Origin: Bacillota bacterium
Lineage (GTDB): Bacteria; Bacillota; Limnochordia; DTU087
Direction of reading: 5' to 3'
Assembly (NCBI GenBank): GCA_012518315.1
Contig: JAAYSL010000084.1
Location: forward strand, 20,336 to 84,335
Length of the DNA stretch: 64,000 bases
This document shows positions 19,311 to 61,225 of the stretch, one piece after another; position 1 is the first letter of the stretch; every line of letters begins with the position of its first letter. The position numbers and the translations under genes are program-made. The notes beneath the pieces are model-generated. The model saw nothing but the letters and a program-made list of their open reading frames with translations. It searched no databases and was not told the origin of the DNA.

Positions 19311-20714
19311 TTAGTTCGCACCGATTGGATACTCACCGGTGAAACAAGCAAGACACAGCTCATCTTTGGGTATTCCGAGAGCTCGAACTAACCCCTCGAC
19401 TGAAATATAGTGCAGAGAATCGGCCTCAATAAGCCTTCTTAGTTCTTCAAGGGTGCGACCTCGGGCAACTAGCTCACTCTTTGATGAAGGTTCAATTCCG
19501 TAGAGACAAGGATACCGATAAGGGGGTGACGCAACGTACATATGAACTTCCCGGGCACCGGCCTCCCTTAGCAAAGCTATAAGTTTGCCAGAAGTTGTCC
19601 CTCGGACGATGGAATCATCCACCACTGCTACCCGTTTTCCCTGGAGCACATCTACCACGGGGTTCAGCTTAATGCGAACAGCCAGCTGACGCCCGGCTTG
19701 AGTAGGCTGCAAGAAAGTCCGCCCCACATAGCGGTTCTTAATCACACCAATTTCAAAAGGCAAGCCCGTGGCTTCGGCAAAACCCAAAGCAGGCGACACG
19801 CCCGAGTCAGGGGCACCAATCACAACATCAGCCCGAGCCATAGTCTCTCTAGCCAGCTCCTGACCAATTGCTTTACGGACAAGGTAGGCATTTTTCCCAC
19901 CTATACAGCTATCCGGACGGGCGAAGTAAATATGCTCGAAGGCACAAAGTGCTTGCTTCTCACTGGGCTTTAGGCTATAAGTATGATAACCTGCTACATC
20001 CAAGGCCACCAGTTCTCCTGGCTTCACCTCCCGGAGAAACTCACCACCCAAATTGGCGATCGCGCAAGACTCTGAGGCTACCATGTAGCCTTCACCCAGC
20101 TTGCCAAGACACAATGGACGATTACCCCAAGGATCCTTGGCAGCCAAGAGCATATCCTCACTTAGAATCACCAAGGCATAGGCTCCCCGGATGAGTTCCA
20201 AGGTTTTGGCTACTGCTGCCGGTAAGTCATTCTCGCCACTTTGGGCAATCAAGTTAAGGATAACTTCCGAGTCTGTATTGGTCTGAAGCACAGTACCCCT
20301 CTCCAGAAGCTGTTGCCTGAGTTCTCTGCCGTTAACGAGACTCCCATTCTGGGCAATCGCTAAGCTGCCAAATGACGAGCGCACCCAAAGTGGTTGGGTA
20401 TTAATCACGTGTCTATCCGCCTCGGTGGATAGACGTACATGGCCAATCCCAGCAAAACCCGGCAGCTCATTCAAAGAATCCTGATCAAACACTTCAGGCA
20501 CTAAGCCTGGACCTTTACCAAGCCACATCTTGTTCCCATCAAAAGTAACTATCCCGGCACTCTCTTGCCCTCGATGCTGTAGGGCATAAAGCCCAAGATA
20601 ACACAGGGACGCAGCCGGTACGCTGGTATCTTTACCCCAAATCCCCACAACACCACAGGCTTCCTGTGGCTTGCCGAGACTATGATTAGTCGCCCTCACG
20701 GCTCCATCTGGCAT
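19311..20714 (-). CDS. purF: amidophosphoribosyltransferase
   Basis: CGVVGIWG Ntn start, PRTase motif and C-terminal Cys ligands. ATG 20714 lies just after the purL stop; the longer ORF (to 21011) overlaps purL. Confidence 0.9.
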   Translation of the reverse strand: MPDGAVRATNHSLGKPQEACGVVGIWGKDTSVPAASLCYLGLYALQHRGQESAGIVTFDGNKMWLGKGPGLVPEVFDQDSLNELPGFAGIGHVRLSTEADRHVINTQPLWVRSSFGSLAIAQNGSLVNGRELRQQLLERGTVLQTNTDSEVILNLIAQSGENDLPAAVAKTLELIRGAYALVILSEDMLLAAKDPWGNRPLCLGKLGEGYMVASESCAIANLGGEFLREVKPGELVALDVAGYHTYSLKPSEKQALCAFEHIYFARPDSCIGGKNAYLVRKAIGQELARETMARADVVIGAPDSGVSPALGFAEATGLPFEIGVIKNRYVGRTFLQPTQAGRQLAVRIKLNPVVDVLQGKRVAVVDDSIVRGTTSGKLIALLREAGAREVHMYVASPPYRYPCLYGIEPSSKSELVARGRTLEELRRLIEADSLHYISVEGLVRALGIPKDELCLACFTGEYPIGAN

Positions 20715-22939
20715 TTGATTGCCCCCCGCCAGGTGCTCTTTAGCTCTTGTACTGACAGATTTACGCAGATCTCTTCTGTATTGTTCTTGCCATCTACCAA
20801 CTGGGTAATTCGCAGGCTTCCAGCCTCCACTTGGCCAATCACACTTAGAGGAACACCTTGCTCTTTTGCCAACTGCTGCAATCGCTGTAGCTTTTCCGAG
20901 GGAAGTGAAACAACTATCCGGCTGTGACTCTCCCCATAGAGTAATGCCGCCTTCGATATGACACTCTCTTTTAGGGTAACCTTGGCTCCCAGCTCCCCTA
21001 AGATACAGCACTCTGCCAAAGCTACGGCCAAGCCGCCTTCACTGCAATCATGAGCCGAGCTAACTAATCCTTCTTTGATGGCCGCAAGGCATAGATCCTG
21101 TACCTTTTTCTCCAAGGCCAGATCAAGTTTTGGTGGGCAGCCAGTTACAAGACCGTGCACTACCTGCAAATATTCACTACCTCCCAATTCCCCTAGGTTT
21201 TCTCCCAAAAGGACGATGGTATCCCCCACTTGTTTGAAGCCTTGAGTGCAGATATGGGCTCGATCTTCGATTAGGCCCACCATACCAATAACAGGAGTAG
21301 GATAGATAGCCTTGCCATTGCTTTCGTTGTAGAAGGATACATTGCCGCCGATGACAGGTGTGTCAAGCATGTGACAGGCCTCAGCAATTCCATCAATAGT
21401 CTGGGAGAATTGCCAGTAGATCTCGGGTTTTTCTGGATTACCGAAATTGAGTCCATCGGTTACCGCAAGAGGTTTCGCCCCACTACAAACAAGATTCCTC
21501 GCAGCTTCAGCCACAGCTGCCGCGGCACCCGAGGCAGGATCAAGATAGCAAAGCCGGGCATTACAGTCTACACTTAAGCCAATAGCTTTATTGGTGCCCG
21601 TAATCCCAATGATCCCAGCTCCTGTAAGGCCTGGTGGTACCAAGGCGTTGCCACCGGCAGAATAGTCATATTGCTGAAAAACCCATTCCTTGCTGGCGAT
21701 ATTTGGAGAAGCGAGAAGTTGGAGTAGAGTTTGATTATGGTCCTCTGGTTCTGGCAGACTAGCAGGTTCAAACTGGGAGATTTCGTCTAGATAGTCTGGG
21801 CGCCGTGAGTTGGGATGGTAAATTGGGGCACTCGCTAGGGCTTGGGCAGGCACTTCAGCCAGCACCTTGCCACTAGATGTGAGGCGCAAAAGGCCGTCAT
21901 CAGTAACTCTGCCAACTGTAGCGATAGGTACATCCCAGCGATTAAAGATAGCTTCAATGGCAGCTTCACATCCTGCCTTGACAACAAAGAGCATGCGTTC
22001 TTGGGTTTCCGAAAGCATGATCTCATAGGGAGTCATGTCCGGCTCACCCACCGGGATTAGATCCATATCTAGCTCGATACCGTGTTGTCCTCTAGCCGCC
22101 ATCTCCGCGGCAGAACTAGTTAGACCCGCAGCACCCATATCCTGAATACCCACTAGATGGCCTGACTTGATAGCTTCTAGACAAGCTTCGATTAGTCGCT
22201 TGCCCATCTCGGGATAGCCTTTCGGTATAGCAGAGCGCCGCTCTTGGGACTCTTCCGTCAGTTCACCTGAGGCAAAGGCGGCACCTTCGATACCATCCCT
22301 GCCAGTAGGGGTGCCGGCCGCCATGACCGGGTTACCTGCCCCAGTGGCTATACCTTTGGCGATGGGATCATCCTTGTCAAGCAGTCCTACTGCCATAGCA
22401 TTTACTAGGCAATTACCGCTGTAGGAATCATCAAAGTAGATCTCTCCGGCGATCATAGGGACTTCCACTGTATTGCCATATCCCGCCATACCAGCCACCG
22501 CACCTTCTAGGAGCCATCGTTGATGCGGATCAGCTAGATTGCCAAACCTCAGTGAGTTCAGACCGGCCACTGGCCTGGCGCCCATGGTGAAGATATCTCT
22601 TAAGATCCCGCCCACTCCTGTGGCGGCTCCTGCATAGGGCTCAATCGCAGATGGGTGATTGTGGCTCTCGATTTTGAAAACTACCGCTTGTCCATCATGA
22701 ATATCGACAATACCCGCATTTTCACCAGGCCCTTGCAGTACATGACTACCTTCGGTTGGCAGCCGCCCGAGTAAAGCCCGGGAATACTTGTACCCACAGT
22801 GTTCTGACCACATCACGGAGAATAGAGCTAATTCCAGTTCATTTGGTGTACGATCCATGTGTTTTTCGATCTGCTGATACTCCTCGGCTGTAAGCCCCAT
22901 CTCTTCCCAGATGTTGCGCTTTTGCTTTTCCGATACCAC
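20696..22939 (-). CDS. purL: phosphoribosylformylglycinamidine synthase subunit PurL (small type, 747 aa)
   Basis: Two AIRS-like repeats (MWSEHCGYK..., GIQDMGAAGL...). Confidence 0.9.
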   Translation of the reverse strand: MVSEKQKRNIWEEMGLTAEEYQQIEKHMDRTPNELELALFSVMWSEHCGYKYSRALLGRLPTEGSHVLQGPGENAGIVDIHDGQAVVFKIESHNHPSAIEPYAGAATGVGGILRDIFTMGARPVAGLNSLRFGNLADPHQRWLLEGAVAGMAGYGNTVEVPMIAGEIYFDDSYSGNCLVNAMAVGLLDKDDPIAKGIATGAGNPVMAAGTPTGRDGIEGAAFASGELTEESQERRSAIPKGYPEMGKRLIEACLEAIKSGHLVGIQDMGAAGLTSSAAEMAARGQHGIELDMDLIPVGEPDMTPYEIMLSETQERMLFVVKAGCEAAIEAIFNRWDVPIATVGRVTDDGLLRLTSSGKVLAEVPAQALASAPIYHPNSRRPDYLDEISQFEPASLPEPEDHNQTLLQLLASPNIASKEWVFQQYDYSAGGNALVPPGLTGAGIIGITGTNKAIGLSVDCNARLCYLDPASGAAAAVAEAARNLVCSGAKPLAVTDGLNFGNPEKPEIYWQFSQTIDGIAEACHMLDTPVIGGNVSFYNESNGKAIYPTPVIGMVGLIEDRAHICTQGFKQVGDTIVLLGENLGELGGSEYLQVVHGLVTGCPPKLDLALEKKVQDLCLAAIKEGLVSSAHDCSEGGLAVALAECCILGELGAKVTLKESVISKAALLYGESHSRIVVSLPSEKLQRLQQLAKEQGVPLSVIGQVEAGSLRITQLVDGKNNTEEICVNLSVQELKSTWRGAIKCQMEP

Positions 22940-23043: not shown

Positions 23044-23076
23044 GGTAGGTTACACTTATGCTATGTGAAACCTACC
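23044..23076. other. 12-bp stem hairpin in the purE-purL gap (possible internal terminator or attenuator)
   Basis: GGTAGGTTACAC-(9 nt)-GTGAAACCTACC, with one mismatch. T-rich flank on the minus strand (CUUUGCUUUC). Confidence 0.3.
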
Positions 23077-23264
23077 CGCCCAGGCTTTTATCCTTCTAGG
23101 GTGTAGCACTGTTACATGAACAGTGCCTGCACCACTTGGTCCAGACCCGCCTATAGGCGACGGAACCCTAGGTGCACTTTCAGCTAAGAAATCTTATTTA
23201 CTTGTCTGTCGGTTATCTATGTCAATTATAGCAGGGGTATGGTATGAGTGCAACTTCTAAACCC

Positions 23265-23819
23265 TTACTTGCCAGCCTCTTTCGCCCTAGCTAAGTAGCC
23301 ATGGTATCCTAATTTCTGAAGCTTAGTGTTTTTATCTAGTACTCCCTTTGCTTGCTCCTTACGATACGCTTCTAGTTTATGGTACCAAACAGGATCGGCC
23401 AAACCTAAGAGCTCCACCGCCAACAAGGCTGCGTTTTTACCGGCACCAATTCCGACTGTTGCCACAGGTATGCCTGGCGGCATTTGCACCATGGCATAAA
23501 GGGCATCTATGCCCCGTAGTTCACCACTAGCAATAGGTACCCCAATCACCGGCAAGGTGGTATACGCTGCCAAAACCCCAGGTAAGTGGGCGGCCATTCC
23601 GGCAGCCGCGATAATCACCTTCAGGCCTCGCTCCCTGGCGGTGGCGGCGTAGTTGGCTGCCTCAGTTGGAGTTCGATGGGCCGACAGAATCTGAACCTCG
23701 AACGGCACATCCCACTTCTCCAGTATCTCTAGACCAGGTGTGAGCACAGGTAGATCGCTATCACTACCCAGCACTACCCCGACTACGGGGGATTTTCCAG
23801 GCACTGCCTGCATATCCAT
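23265..23819 (-). CDS. purE: N5-carboxyaminoimidazole ribonucleotide mutase
   Basis: VVGVVLGSDSDLPV...IIAAAGMAAHLPGV, the PurE fold signature. Confidence 0.9.
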   Translation of the reverse strand: MDMQAVPGKSPVVGVVLGSDSDLPVLTPGLEILEKWDVPFEVQILSAHRTPTEAANYAATARERGLKVIIAAAGMAAHLPGVLAAYTTLPVIGVPIASGELRGIDALYAMVQMPPGIPVATVGIGAGKNAALLAVELLGLADPVWYHKLEAYRKEQAKGVLDKNTKLQKLGYHGYLARAKEAGK

Positions 23820-45567: not shown

Positions 45568-46761
45568 CTACCCGCGTTCTCTGGCAATCTTCTCCTGATA
45601 GCCACTCTGGCGGTAAGCCTCTAGGGGAGCTATCGGAACTTGTAGTTCCTCTCTGACATTCACCAAAAGTGGTGTGACATCCCGATCATATGCGGCTCTT
45701 AGGATAGTTTCCGCCCCAATGATATCTCCTTCCCTTTGGGCTTCTCGCAGGGCTTGGCGGTCAACCAATAGAGCCTTGGCATATGCTGCTTGGATGCTCT
45801 CTACTGACTGGATCATGGCCGCTACCTTGGGCTTTACATTGTGACTTTGATCGATCATATAGGCGACATTTAGGTCTTCCTGCAGATCCTCTGCCCCTGC
45901 TACTAGTTCGTTATAGATCAAAAACAACTCATAGGGGTTAGTAGAGCCAGTGGTCAGATCATCATCAGCGTACTTCTTCGAGTTAAAATGAAAACCACCT
46001 AACTTGCCTTCATCGATGAGATAGGCAACGATTTGTTCAATGTTGGTACCTAGGGGATGGTGGCCTAGATCCACAAGTGTCTGGGCTTTAGGGCCAAGCT
46101 TCGTGGCCAAAAGTGTCGCCATGCCCCAGTCGGCCAGATCAGTATGATAAAAAGCTGGCTCAAAGAATTTGTACTCGATTAAGAGGCGCTGATCATCGGC
46201 CAAAGCGTCACAGACTATCCGAAGCGTGTCCTCCAAACGCTTTTTTCTAGCCCTGAAATCATCTTGACCAGGATAGTTGGTGCCATCGGCTAGCCAAAGG
46301 CTTAGTACCTTGGAGCCAGTGATGTTCATGATCTCTATACATTCCAAAATGTGGTCCAATGCTTTGCGCCGTACTACTTTATCTGGATGACAAAGGCTGC
46401 CTAGTTTATACTCTGGTTCCTGAAAAAGGTTGGGATTAATCGCCCCGATGGTCAAGTCTAGTTCGGCAGCGTAGTCTACAACTCTCTCGTAATCATCTAC
46501 CTCATCCCAAGGGATATGCAAAGCTACACTAGGAGTAATGCCTGTCATTTGATGAACCATGGCAGCATCATCGAGCTTCTCGAATACAGTCCGGGCGGCT
46601 CCTGGTTGATGAAATACCTGAAAGCGGGTGCCACTGTCAGCATATCCCCAGGAAGGGGTCTCGATCTTTTGATTAAGTAGCGATTCCTTGGCTTTCGCTA
46701 TGTCTACCCCACCCGGAAGACTCTTCTCAAAATGTGCATAGGCTTGATCCATTGTGCCCAC
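45568..46761 (-). CDS. TIM-barrel sugar isomerase (xylose-isomerase-like fold; L-rhamnose-isomerase-like)
   Basis: 397-aa ORF with conserved block [14 protein letters not shown]...HIPWDE typical of xylose-isomerase-fold sugar isomerases. The exact substrate is not assignable from sequence. Confidence 0.55.
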
Positions 46762-46842: not shown

Positions 46843-47886
46843 TCAGACTACATTTCTCTCCCACCACTCGTCTGTACTACTTAGAGTCAATGCTCCTGCT
46901 ACCCGCTGGACTGCCTTAATCATCTGACCGAATTGCCGGGGAGTCAGGGATTGCGCACCATCAGACAAGGCAGTATCTGGATTTGGGTGTACTTCCACCA
47001 TGAGGCCTTGGGCCCCAGCGGCGACAGCTGCACACCCAGCTGGGGTCACCAATTCACTTCTCCCGGTGGCATGGCTGGGATCAGCAATCACCGGTAAGTG
47101 GCTCAGTCGTCTCGCCAAGGCGATAGCCCCCACATCTAGAGTATTGCGGGTAGCTGTCTCAAAGGTACGAATACCTCTTTCACAAAGAATGACCTGGTAG
47201 TTGCCTTCGGATAAGATGTATTCGGCTGCCATCAGCCATTCTTCAATGGTAGCCGAAAGCCCTCGCTTGAGTAGCACCGGTTTGCGAGAATGCCCCACTT
47301 GCCTGAGTAAGGAGAAGTTTTGCATATTGCGAGCCCCAATCTGTAGAATATCTACGTACCGGGCGACCAATTCTACATCAGAAGGGTTGATTACCTCAGA
47401 AACAGTGGGCATACCAAAGGTCTCCCCTGCTTCTTGGAGATATTCTAGACCCCTTTCACCTAGCCCCTGGAAGCTATATGGTGATGTACGGGGTTTGAAG
47501 GCACCACCCCGCAAAATCGAGGCACCGGCGATTTTTACTTGTTCGGCTGTTTCTAGAATCTGCTCTCTACTCTCAATGGCACAAGGGCCTGCCATATAGA
47601 CCATCTTGCCATCACCAATGGTCACGTTTTTGATCTGGATAATGCTATCTTCGGCCTTGGCATCACGACTAGTAAGTTTGTACGGGGCCATGATGGGAAC
47701 AGCTTTTTCCACTCCGGGCAATCCCTCAAAAAAGCTAGGTTCCAGTCCATTCTTGTCTCCGACAAGTCCGATGACTGTTCTGGCCACCCCAACAATTACG
47801 TGGGGTTCTAGCCCATAGTGCTTGATCCGGGCGACAATATCCTGTAGTTCGGTCTCACTTGCCTCTTTTTGTAGGACAATAATCAT
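46843..47886 (-). CDS. aroG: 3-deoxy-7-phosphoheptulonate (DAHP) synthase, type I-beta with N-terminal regulatory domain
   Basis: N-terminal ferredoxin-like/ACT-like domain, then the KDO8PS/DAHPS barrel (GPCAIESREQ..., KPRTSPYSFQGLG, ADPSHATG). RBS TAGGAGG. Confidence 0.9.
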   Translation of the reverse strand: MIIVLQKEASETELQDIVARIKHYGLEPHVIVGVARTVIGLVGDKNGLEPSFFEGLPGVEKAVPIMAPYKLTSRDAKAEDSIIQIKNVTIGDGKMVYMAGPCAIESREQILETAEQVKIAGASILRGGAFKPRTSPYSFQGLGERGLEYLQEAGETFGMPTVSEVINPSDVELVARYVDILQIGARNMQNFSLLRQVGHSRKPVLLKRGLSATIEEWLMAAEYILSEGNYQVILCERGIRTFETATRNTLDVGAIALARRLSHLPVIADPSHATGRSELVTPAGCAAVAAGAQGLMVEVHPNPDTALSDGAQSLTPRQFGQMIKAVQRVAGALTLSSTDEWWERNVV

Positions 47887-47911
47887 GTCTTTTGCCTCCT
47901 AACTTGGGAAT

Positions 47912-48220
47912 AACAAAACCCCTCATCCGATAAGGGACGAGGGGTTACTCGCGGTACCACCCTATTTGTGTGACGCAAAATCACACCACTTTAATCAGAC
48001 ACCTTTATCTATGAGCATAAAGCTACAGACAGTCGAGGCCTGCTTCCTTATAACGGTGGAAGTCTCCGTTGTTGCCTACTTCAAGTTCAGCAACACGGCT
48101 CCGGGGAGAACTTCACCTCTACCTTACGTACCGGCTTACACCTAACCCGGCTCTCTAGAACGTTTCAGCAGAACTACTTTTCCCCTTCATTGCCTTTTTA
48201 CAGACTGCTTGCATATGTTA
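47912..48220 (-). ncRNA. T-box riboswitch leader upstream of aroG
   Basis: Minus-strand leader contains the T-box core AAUAGGGUGGUACCGCGAG (plus coordinates 47948-47967), immediately followed by a terminator hairpin AACCCCUCGUCCC-UUAUC-GGAUGAGGGGUUUUGUUAUU (47912-47946). Stem I shows a K-turn/GA motif with AGUA box (GGCAAUGAAGGGGAAAAGUAG), an AG bulge (CUAGAGAGCC) and a distal loop (GGUGUAAGCC). Length about 310 nt. Confidence 0.85.
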
Positions 48221-48226
48221 GTTCCT

Positions 48227-48255
48227 ATTGTACAGTGGCGAGGTACCGCTGTCAA
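48227..48255 (-). promoter_or_regulatory. sigma-A-type promoter (TTGACA-17-TACAAT) driving the T-box leader and aroG
   Basis: On the minus strand, -35 TTGACA overlaps the GerMN stop codon. Perfect 17-nt spacing to TACAAT. Confidence 0.6.
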
Positions 48256-57463: not shown

Positions 57464-57520
57464 GACTTCACCTCCGCGTTAATGAACCTCGCCCCCTTGC
57501 CCGTTTACCGATACTACCCA

Positions 57521-57552
57521 TAAAAAAAACCCTGCCATCCGGCAGGGCATGC
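57521..57552 (-). terminator. intrinsic terminator of the pyr leader attenuator (also terminates the upstream oxidoreductase gene)
   Basis: Minus strand: GCAUGCCCUGCC-GGAU-GGCAGGGU followed by UUUUUUUU, about 60 nt upstream of the pyrB ATG. Confidence 0.75.
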
Positions 57553-57613
57553 ATCTTCAATATAGCTTACAACAAGCTCCGGTGAATTGGCTACACCGGT
57601 AGTTGTCCCCTTG

Positions 57614-57631
57614 CTGACCTCGCCGGATCAT
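57614..57631 (-). promoter_or_regulatory. PyrR-binding loop candidate (anti-antiterminator) in pyrB leader
   Basis: Minus-strand RNA GAUCCGGCGAGGUC fits ARUCCNGNGAGGYU at 12/14 positions. It sits in the loop of a UUCCCUU/AAGGGGA stem upstream of the terminator. Confidence 0.5.
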
Positions 57632-57740
57632 CTTAAAGGGAAGCGAGTTTCTTTCGCTTATCGTACCAGTCGCTAGCTAGGTTGTCAATAGGTCAGCACG
57701 TCATTTCACCTAGCCAACGTCATTTTCTCTGGCCACCGTT

Positions 57741-61149: not shown

Positions 61150-61225
61150 AGGGGAGTAGCTCAATTGGCAGAGCACCGGTCTCCAAAACCGGGGGCTGCG
61201 GGTTCGATTCCTGTCTCCCCTGCCA
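61150..61225 (+). tRNA. trnW: tRNA-Trp (anticodon CCA)
   Basis: Manual cloverleaf: acceptor AGGGGAG/CUCCCCU, D-stem GCUC/GAGC, anticodon stem CCGGU/ACCGG with loop CUCCAAA, T-loop UUCGAUU, discriminator G, encoded CCA. 76 nt. Confidence 0.9.

Follow-up and report, generated by a model that had tools for sequence, protein, structure and literature searches.

A T-box leader with a very probable phenylalanine specifier upstream of a DAHP synthase gene in an uncultured Bacillota bacterium

Results

The DAHP synthase gene and its surroundings

We analyzed a 64,000-nt stretch of DNA, referred to below as the window, from a Bacillota bacterium (Limnochordia; DTU087; assembly GCA_012518315.1, contig JAAYSL010000084.1, positions 20,336-84,335), an uncultured organism of a biogas reactor. 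The window contains a 347-aa open reading frame (Table 1) whose product scores 503.7 bits against NF006421 (cut-off 335) and 411 bits against TIGR01361, with the DAHP_synth_1 barrel (PF00793) recognized at 281 bits and the DAHP_snth_FXD domain (PF18152) at 74.8 bits. The best solved structure is that of the T. maritima enzyme (1RZM/3PG9), which matches residues 1-334 with an E-value of 8e-111. On the strength of these matches, the enzyme is a DAHP synthase of the Thermotoga/Bacillus (I-beta) type, whose N-terminal regulatory domain is ferredoxin-like (ACT-like). We also considered an E. coli-type AroG (I-alpha) identity and rejected it since the best matches are all to I-beta families and structures; the name aroG, which a preliminary description of this DNA had given to the gene, is thus a loose functional label only.

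Directly upstream of the DAHP synthase gene are a pyr operon (pyrB...pyrD-pyrF-pyrE) and a Germane-domain gene. The pyr operon is headed by a PyrR binding-site attenuator that scores marginally (54.5 bits against a cut-off of 54), which is itself preceded by a promoter-like TTGACA-17-TACGAT site. On the other side, an L-rhamnose isomerase family gene of the Gram-positive type (TIGR02635, 612 bits) begins 82 nt past the DAHP synthase stop codon, and neither a terminator nor a promoter was detected in the gap between the two genes. The rhamnose-isomerase-family gene could consequently be co-transcribed under the T-box described below, odd as this would be. The order of these two genes is kept in the nearest species representative (locus L001), where the DAHP synthase protein is 73% identical, and the same DAHP synthase protein is present on contigs of four metagenome assemblies.

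Elsewhere in the window, a Guanidine-I (ykkC, RF00442) match of 72 bits (cut-off 63) sits in a purine operon between purE and purL, and no other Rfam family matched this region in the Rfam scan. In this context, a PRPP-sensing variant of subtype 2 seems more fitting than a sensor of guanidine.

Table 1. Positions of the leader elements, the DAHP synthase gene and neighboring features, numbered from the first nucleotide of the window.
Feature	Position	Strand	Sequence or pairing	Basis
Promoter-like site before PyrR attenuator	57660-57688	-	TTGACA-17-TACGAT	
PyrR binding-site attenuator	57520-57643	-	upstream of pyrB	54.5 bits
pyr operon	pyrB 57463-56519 to pyrE 49519-48947	-		
Sigma-70-type promoter	48255-48227	-	TTGACA (48255-48250), 17-nt spacer, TACAAT (48232-48227)	11/12 to consensus
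T-box leader (RF00230), full-length	47930..48199	-		covariance model
Stem I	48098..48193	-		covariance model; P1 and P2 pairing across 21 leaders
Stem I P1	48193-48192 with 48099-48098	-	GC with GC	covariance model
K-turn (GA motif)	48191-48186 / 48102-48100	-	AAUGAA, opposite GGA	motif located and covariance model
Stem I P2	48185-48182 with 48106-48103	-	GGGG with CCCC	covariance model
Specifier loop, 5' strand	48181-48175	-	AAAAGUA	motif located
AG bulge	48156-48152	-	AGAGA	aligned to conserved model columns
Distal loop	within 48147-48133	-	GGUGUAA	aligned to conserved model columns
Rejected specifier candidate	48128..48130	-	UAC	base-paired in distal Stem I (covariance-model alignment)
Specifier loop, 3' strand	48107..48114	-	GAAGUUCU; S-turn GAA, spacer G, UUC, trailing U	opposite AAAAGUA
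Very probable specifier codon (Phe)	48108..48110	-	UUC	codon columns of covariance model
Stem II with S-turn	48070..48096	-	UGUUGCU/GGCAACA; GAA...AGUA	covariance model
Stem IIA/B with F-box	48069-48051, element 48043..48069	-	F-box CCGUUA	covariance model and motif search
Variable linker with weak hairpin	47988..48042	-	~55 nt	model insertion; partly conserved in L001
Stem III	47968..47987	-	GGUGUGA/UCACAC; 5' flank AAGUG, 3' flank AA	covariance model and motif search
T-box core	47967-47948	-	AAAUAGGGUGGUACCGCGAG	motif located
T-box core and antiterminator	47933..47967	-		covariance model
Antiterminator helix A1	47963-47960 with 47936-47933	-	AGGG with CCCU	covariance model
Antiterminator bulge	47959-47953	-	UGGUACC	covariance model
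Antiterminator helix A2	47952-47948 with 47941-47937	-	GCGAG with CUCGU	covariance model
Intrinsic terminator, 12-bp stem	47946-47935 with 47928-47917	-	AACCCCUCGUCC/GGAUGAGGGGUU; loop CUUAUC	
Terminator element including U-tract tail	47909..47946	-	tail UUGUUAUU	pattern scan
RBS	47900-47895	-	AGGAGG	outside terminator, not sequestered
DAHP synthase ORF, 347 aa	46843..47886 (ATG at 47886)	-		domain and structure matches
L-rhamnose isomerase family gene	45568-46761	-		TIGR02635
purE	23265-23819			
Guanidine-I (ykkC) match	23075-23182	-		RF00442
purL	20696-22939			
tRNA-Trp gene	61150-61225	+	anticodon CCA	

A complete T-box leader precedes the gene

We scanned the entire 64 kb against Rfam. This returned a highly significant match to RF00230, the model that the preliminary description had proposed for a check of the leader region (48199-47930, minus strand), of 150.9 bits and an E-value of 6e-34, relative to a gathering score of 93 bits, in which model positions 1-219 are all aligned. 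This match is the only T-box found by the scan and supports the proposal that a T-box riboswitch lies ahead of the DAHP synthase gene. The minus-strand promoter that had been proposed was also found; its exact TTGACA-17-TACAAT pattern occurs once in the window, where 0.26 chance matches are expected with one mismatch allowed, and it is kept in the closest relative L001 as TTGACA-17-TAGAAT. Transcription would be expected to start near 48220.

The K-turn, AGUA box, AG bulge, distal loop and T-box core listed in the preliminary description were all located on the minus strand. Specifically, Stem I contains a K-turn (AAUGAA/GGA) and a specifier loop with an AGUA/GAA S-turn (AAAAGUA/GAA), together with the AG bulge and distal loop that are the elements of the tRNA-elbow platform. 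These are followed by Stem II with its S-turn, which exhibits compensatory changes relative to L001, by a Stem IIA/B that carries an F-box and a pseudoknot between the loop sequence CUUCC and GGAAG (48047-48043), a possible pairing that we read directly off the sequence, and by a Stem III whose flanks fit the RRRxG...AA motif as defined in PMC7583486. The hairpin in the linker that separates Stem IIA/B from Stem III does not fold better than shuffled sequence (z-score -0.55, not significant). Four independent metagenome assemblies, from biogas and other sources, carry an identical leader. The sole leader polymorphism among these assemblies is a G to C change at 48132 (in L084), a paired position in distal Stem I.

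At its 3' end the leader contains a core, GGGUGGUACCGCG, whose UGGN bulge is part of an antiterminator in competition with a terminator. Both structures could be drawn, and their mutual exclusivity, on which the preliminary description had staked the T-box reading, follows from the 7 nt (CUCGUCC, 47941-47935) that the terminator (-21.7 kcal/mol) and the antiterminator (-8.6 kcal/mol) have in common. The strong terminator that had been placed before the RBS is also present, as a 12-bp stem, but the distance from the end of this stem to the AGGAGG is 16 nt and not 20 nt. Given that the RBS lies outside both structures, control is transcriptional. By analogy with the standard T-box arrangement, termination would be the default state, with the antiterminator requiring a bound uncharged tRNA. 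Taken together, the element is, as judged from its sequence, a complete class I transcriptional T-box leader.

The specifier codon is very probably UUC

In the covariance-model alignment, the reading frame at the specifier is GAA-G-UUC-U-CCCC, with the CCCC pairing with GGGG. The model has eight unpaired columns at this location with the consensus GAA-a-uuc-a, which comprise the S-turn, a spacer, three codon columns and a purine. UUC is also the ‘+0’ frame that is preferred by TBDB, defined as the second to fourth nucleotides when the specifier bulge is counted from its 3' end (PMC7778990). This codon is complementary to the tRNA-Phe anticodon GAA, and phenylalanine is a product of the regulated pathway so that codon and gene are functionally related. 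The alignment, the ‘+0’ frame rule and the 20 orthologous leaders described below thus indicate that the specifier is, with high probability, UUC (Phe), which was one of the candidates in the preliminary description.

A minimum-energy fold of Stem I (ViennaRNA) was considered and rejected, as its pairing of GGGGAA with UUCUCC disregards the K-turn and S-turn and is at odds with the covariation. UUC is hidden in a false helix in this fold, which accounts for the failure of the earlier hand fold to fix the specifier.

The nucleotide 3' of the codon is a U in the window leader, a position where a conserved purine is usual (PMC7583486), although this is a frequent rather than a defining feature. 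According to the same review, the purine stacks under the codon-anticodon helix, a requirement that is partly relieved by Stem II: an A19U change in the Stem II-containing ileS T-box has a 2.4-fold effect, and the equivalent change kills the Stem II-less glyQS T-box (PMC7583486). Since the window leader has a full Stem II S-turn, it should be able to tolerate a pyrimidine after the codon. An A-U or G-C pair formed across the loop may additionally provide a stacking platform that replaces the purine.

The discriminator nucleotide A73 is common to bacterial Phe, Tyr and Val tRNAs. The UGGU of the antiterminator bulge is compatible with A73 and can also form a wobble pair with G73 of the tRNA-Trp that is encoded in the window, and in TBDB a U is opposite G in 46% of Trp T-boxes (PMC7778990). 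As a consequence, the discriminator base does not discriminate among these tRNAs. A tRNA-Phe gene was found neither in the 64-kb window nor in the 24 fetched loci. The window encodes no tRNA other than this tRNA-Trp, whose gene has a G at the discriminator position and includes the CCA end.

Orthologous leaders fix the specifier register

We compared the window leader with the 80 best DAHP synthase orthologue loci, taken from contigs with one genome per species. Motif searches and Rfam scans revealed a T-box immediately upstream of the gene in 20 of the 80 loci, of which 15 reach the gathering score and five fall below it with all motifs present by eye; the Rfam scan of the other 60 loci detected no further T-box at the gathering score. 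All 20 T-box-bearing loci are from Bacillota, with Limnochordia, Syntrophomonadaceae, Desulfotomaculum relatives and Clostridia among their labels. The specifier loop reads GAA-G-UUC-N in 19 of these leaders as well as in the window leader, so that UUC is present in 20 of 21, and the UGGU of the bulge is present in all 21. The one exception is L008 (2036-2310, Bacillota MAG CSSed162cmA_272R1), where a canonical 7-nt GAA-UAC-A loop presents a UAC (Tyr) specifier. L008 exemplifies a switch in specificity, here to Tyr, inside one T-box lineage.

The GAAGUUC block is invariant in the UUC leaders and, as such, conservation alone cannot separate a UUC register from a GUU register. The register is instead given by covariation. 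Specifically, the 4-bp P2 helix below the loop occurs among the leaders in eight complementary forms (GGGG/CCCC, AAGG/CCUU, CGGG/CCCG, AGGG/CCCU, GGAG/CUCC, AGAG/CUCU, GAAG/CUUC and CAAG/CUUG). In a MAFFT alignment of the 21 leaders (alignment A1), P2 is 98.8% paired with compensatory changes at three of its four pairs, and P1 is 100% paired, also with compensatory changes. None of 500 shuffles matched the observed pairing or covariation score, and sliding the partner strand by 1-3 columns reduced pairing to 54% or less. The covariation of P2 thus fixes the boundary of the loop, which places UUC one nucleotide above the helix. The register of the family is further anchored by L003 and L043, which exhibit a canonical UUC-A-helix arrangement, and by L008 with UAC-A-helix.

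The nucleotide that trails the codon is U in 10, C in eight and A in three of the 21 leaders, and thus a pyrimidine in 18. In 13 leaders (62%) this nucleotide can pair with the first nucleotide of the 5' loop strand, and all six cases with a G there are matched to a C. These observations leave some room for a non-canonical presentation of the codon in the DAHP synthase T-boxes, with a closing pair taking the place of the purine stack or with the GUU and UUC frames both being read, which we regard as improbable.

A second reading of the same T-box, which we likewise consider improbable, starts one nucleotide upstream so that GUU (Val) directly follows the S-turn GAA, the C becomes the nucleotide after the codon, and the last U of the loop is paired with its first A. 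The specifier loops of the glyQS type are 7 nt long with the codon directly after the S-turn GAA, and a spacerless GAA-NNN-R arrangement does exist in L008 (GAA-UAC-A). The spacer G is also as invariant as UUC itself, and should the cross-loop pair form, for which the matched G-C cases speak, then a 3'-anchored rule would yield GUU. However, the pair forms in only 62% of the leaders. It is impossible in L003, L043, L063, L046 and others, where two unpaired nucleotides would be left after GUU. Furthermore, the covariance model and MAFFT both align the UAC of L008 with UUC and not with GUU, and a change from GUU to UAC would take three substitutions as compared to one from UUC. Valine is also without a link to the DAHP synthase pathway, and a matching tRNA is rare for specifiers with a final U (8.6% in TBDB; PMC7778990). 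The GUU register that had been raised in the preliminary description is consequently disfavored relative to UUC.

The other early candidate, with the UAC at 48130-48128 as the specifier of a Tyr-specific T-box, has some appeal given that Tyr-specific T-boxes do control DAHP synthase genes elsewhere and that the specifier of L008 is UAC. In the window leader, however, this triplet is base-paired in the helices of distal Stem I, some 20 nt from the specifier loop, and it is not conserved beyond the closest relative L001, which makes a Tyr reading very unlikely. Equally hard to sustain is the view that the T-box is a decayed relic and that the gene is constitutive or read through from the upstream pyr and Germane-domain genes. 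A pattern scan did not reveal a terminator between the Germane-domain gene and the leader, which speaks for this view, but transcripts from upstream would still reach the terminator of the leader. A relic is also at odds with conserved elements that are all intact, a score far above the cut-off, a near-consensus promoter of its own, compensatory changes in L001 and identity in four assemblies. Finally, a Ser reading in the +1 frame (UCU here; UCU, UCC or UCA across the leaders) can be dismissed, as any UCN codes for Ser whatever the variable nucleotide and is hence uninformative, different leaders would require different isoacceptors, the next nucleotide is already within helix P2, serine is functionally unlinked to the gene, and TBDB ranks the +1 frame last (PMC7778990).

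Discussion

Predicted control of DAHP synthase by tRNA-Phe

This analysis establishes the membership of the leader in the T-box family, its two alternative structures, and where UUC lies and how far it is conserved; that the leader binds a tRNA and responds to its charging, and that allostery adds a further layer, we infer from established knowledge of T-boxes. On this combined basis, the leader most likely gates transcription of the DAHP synthase gene, turning it on when tRNA-Phe is uncharged. In such a mechanism, a transcript that starts near 48220 would display UUC in the specifier loop of Stem I, where it would bind tRNA-Phe(GAA). If this tRNA is uncharged, then its 3' ACCA would pair with the UGGU (47959-47956) of the T-box bulge and steady the weak antiterminator so that RNA polymerase reads through into the gene. 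With a charged tRNA, the amino acid would block this contact, the far more stable terminator would form and the transcript would end after ~310 nt. Phenylalanine starvation would thereby lead to more DAHP synthase, to which the ferredoxin-like domain of the enzyme probably adds feedback inhibition by an end product.

Relation to known systems

The archetype of the class I T-box is that of Bacillus subtilis tyrS. The window leader has the same Stem I, II, IIA/B and III elements, UGGN bulge and competing terminator and antiterminator as the RF00230 class I T-boxes, and differs from them by the U in place of a purine 3' of the codon and by the ~55 nt that are inserted after Stem IIA/B and before Stem III. 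In T-boxes of pheST, UUC is the usual Phe specifier. These share with the window leader the predicted ligand, tRNA-Phe(GAA), and the logic of the UGGU bulge, but they regulate an aminoacyl-tRNA synthetase whereas the window leader precedes a biosynthetic enzyme. E. coli AroG is a Phe-specific DAHP synthase isoenzyme that is subject to TyrR repression and allosteric Phe inhibition. It resembles the window gene by analogy only, as a DAHP synthase tied to phenylalanine supply, and differs in its protein-repressor mechanism and I-alpha subtype from the T-box leader and I-beta enzyme of the window. A closer counterpart of the enzyme is the T. maritima DAH7P synthase (1RZM, 3PG9), which it matches over the full length including the ferredoxin-like domain. 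The AroA of the B. cereus group has a chorismate-mutase domain and not the ferredoxin-like domain of the window enzyme.

DAHP synthase genes under T-box control have been catalogued before. Specifically, a RegPrecise-based table assigns Tyr T-boxes to aroA (DAHP synthase) of Bacillus cereus ATCC 14579 and of Clostridium cellulolyticum H10 (PMC3766115, Additional file 2), and for the B. cereus group, Wels et al. describe tyrosine and shikimate genes that are controlled by T-boxes (PMC2494555). The window leader would likewise gate the enzyme of the first committed step in the shikimate pathway; the difference is in the specifier, which is Tyr in the B. cereus and C. cellulolyticum aroA T-boxes and very probably Phe (UUC) here. 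Across 93 genomes, the only entries in the Phe column of the same compilation are pheST and, for a single species, brnQ1 (PMC3766115, Additional file 2). Among the papers that we searched, none combines a T-box, DAHP synthase and a specifier; a Phe-specific case may already be listed, for instance in TBDB.

For the single locus, the outcome is little beyond annotation, in that a probable Phe specificity is assigned to the T-box of an uncultured biogas-reactor Bacillota. More broadly, the orthologous leaders suggest that a tRNA-Phe-gated DAHP synthase is common in several lineages of anaerobic Bacillota, among them Limnochordia-, Syntrophomonas- and Desulfotomaculum-like MAGs. There is also a practical aspect, as minimum-energy folding, and possibly pipelines that refine helices, can bury the specifier or shift it by one nucleotide so that Val is called instead of Phe, a register that covariation among orthologous leaders fixes.

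Only two features are mildly out of the ordinary, namely the pyrimidine that follows the codon and, outside the window, the partial tandem arrangement of the leaders in some relatives. Partially tandem T-boxes are known to exist, with a mode of action that is unknown (PMC7583486). Seven of the DAHP synthase leaders, from Desulfotomaculum- and Syntrophomonas-like loci, are of this type (L011, 2578-3001; L046, 2563-2992; L040, 1180-1420; and L013, L019, L031 and L043). In these related loci, a complete Phe T-box with its terminator is followed after ~70 nt by a second Stem III, T-box core and terminator; this second unit is without a second Stem I or II and has its RRRxG...AA flanks intact. L011 has no second terminator, and the 3' strand UCCCU can pair there with the RBS GGAGGGA.
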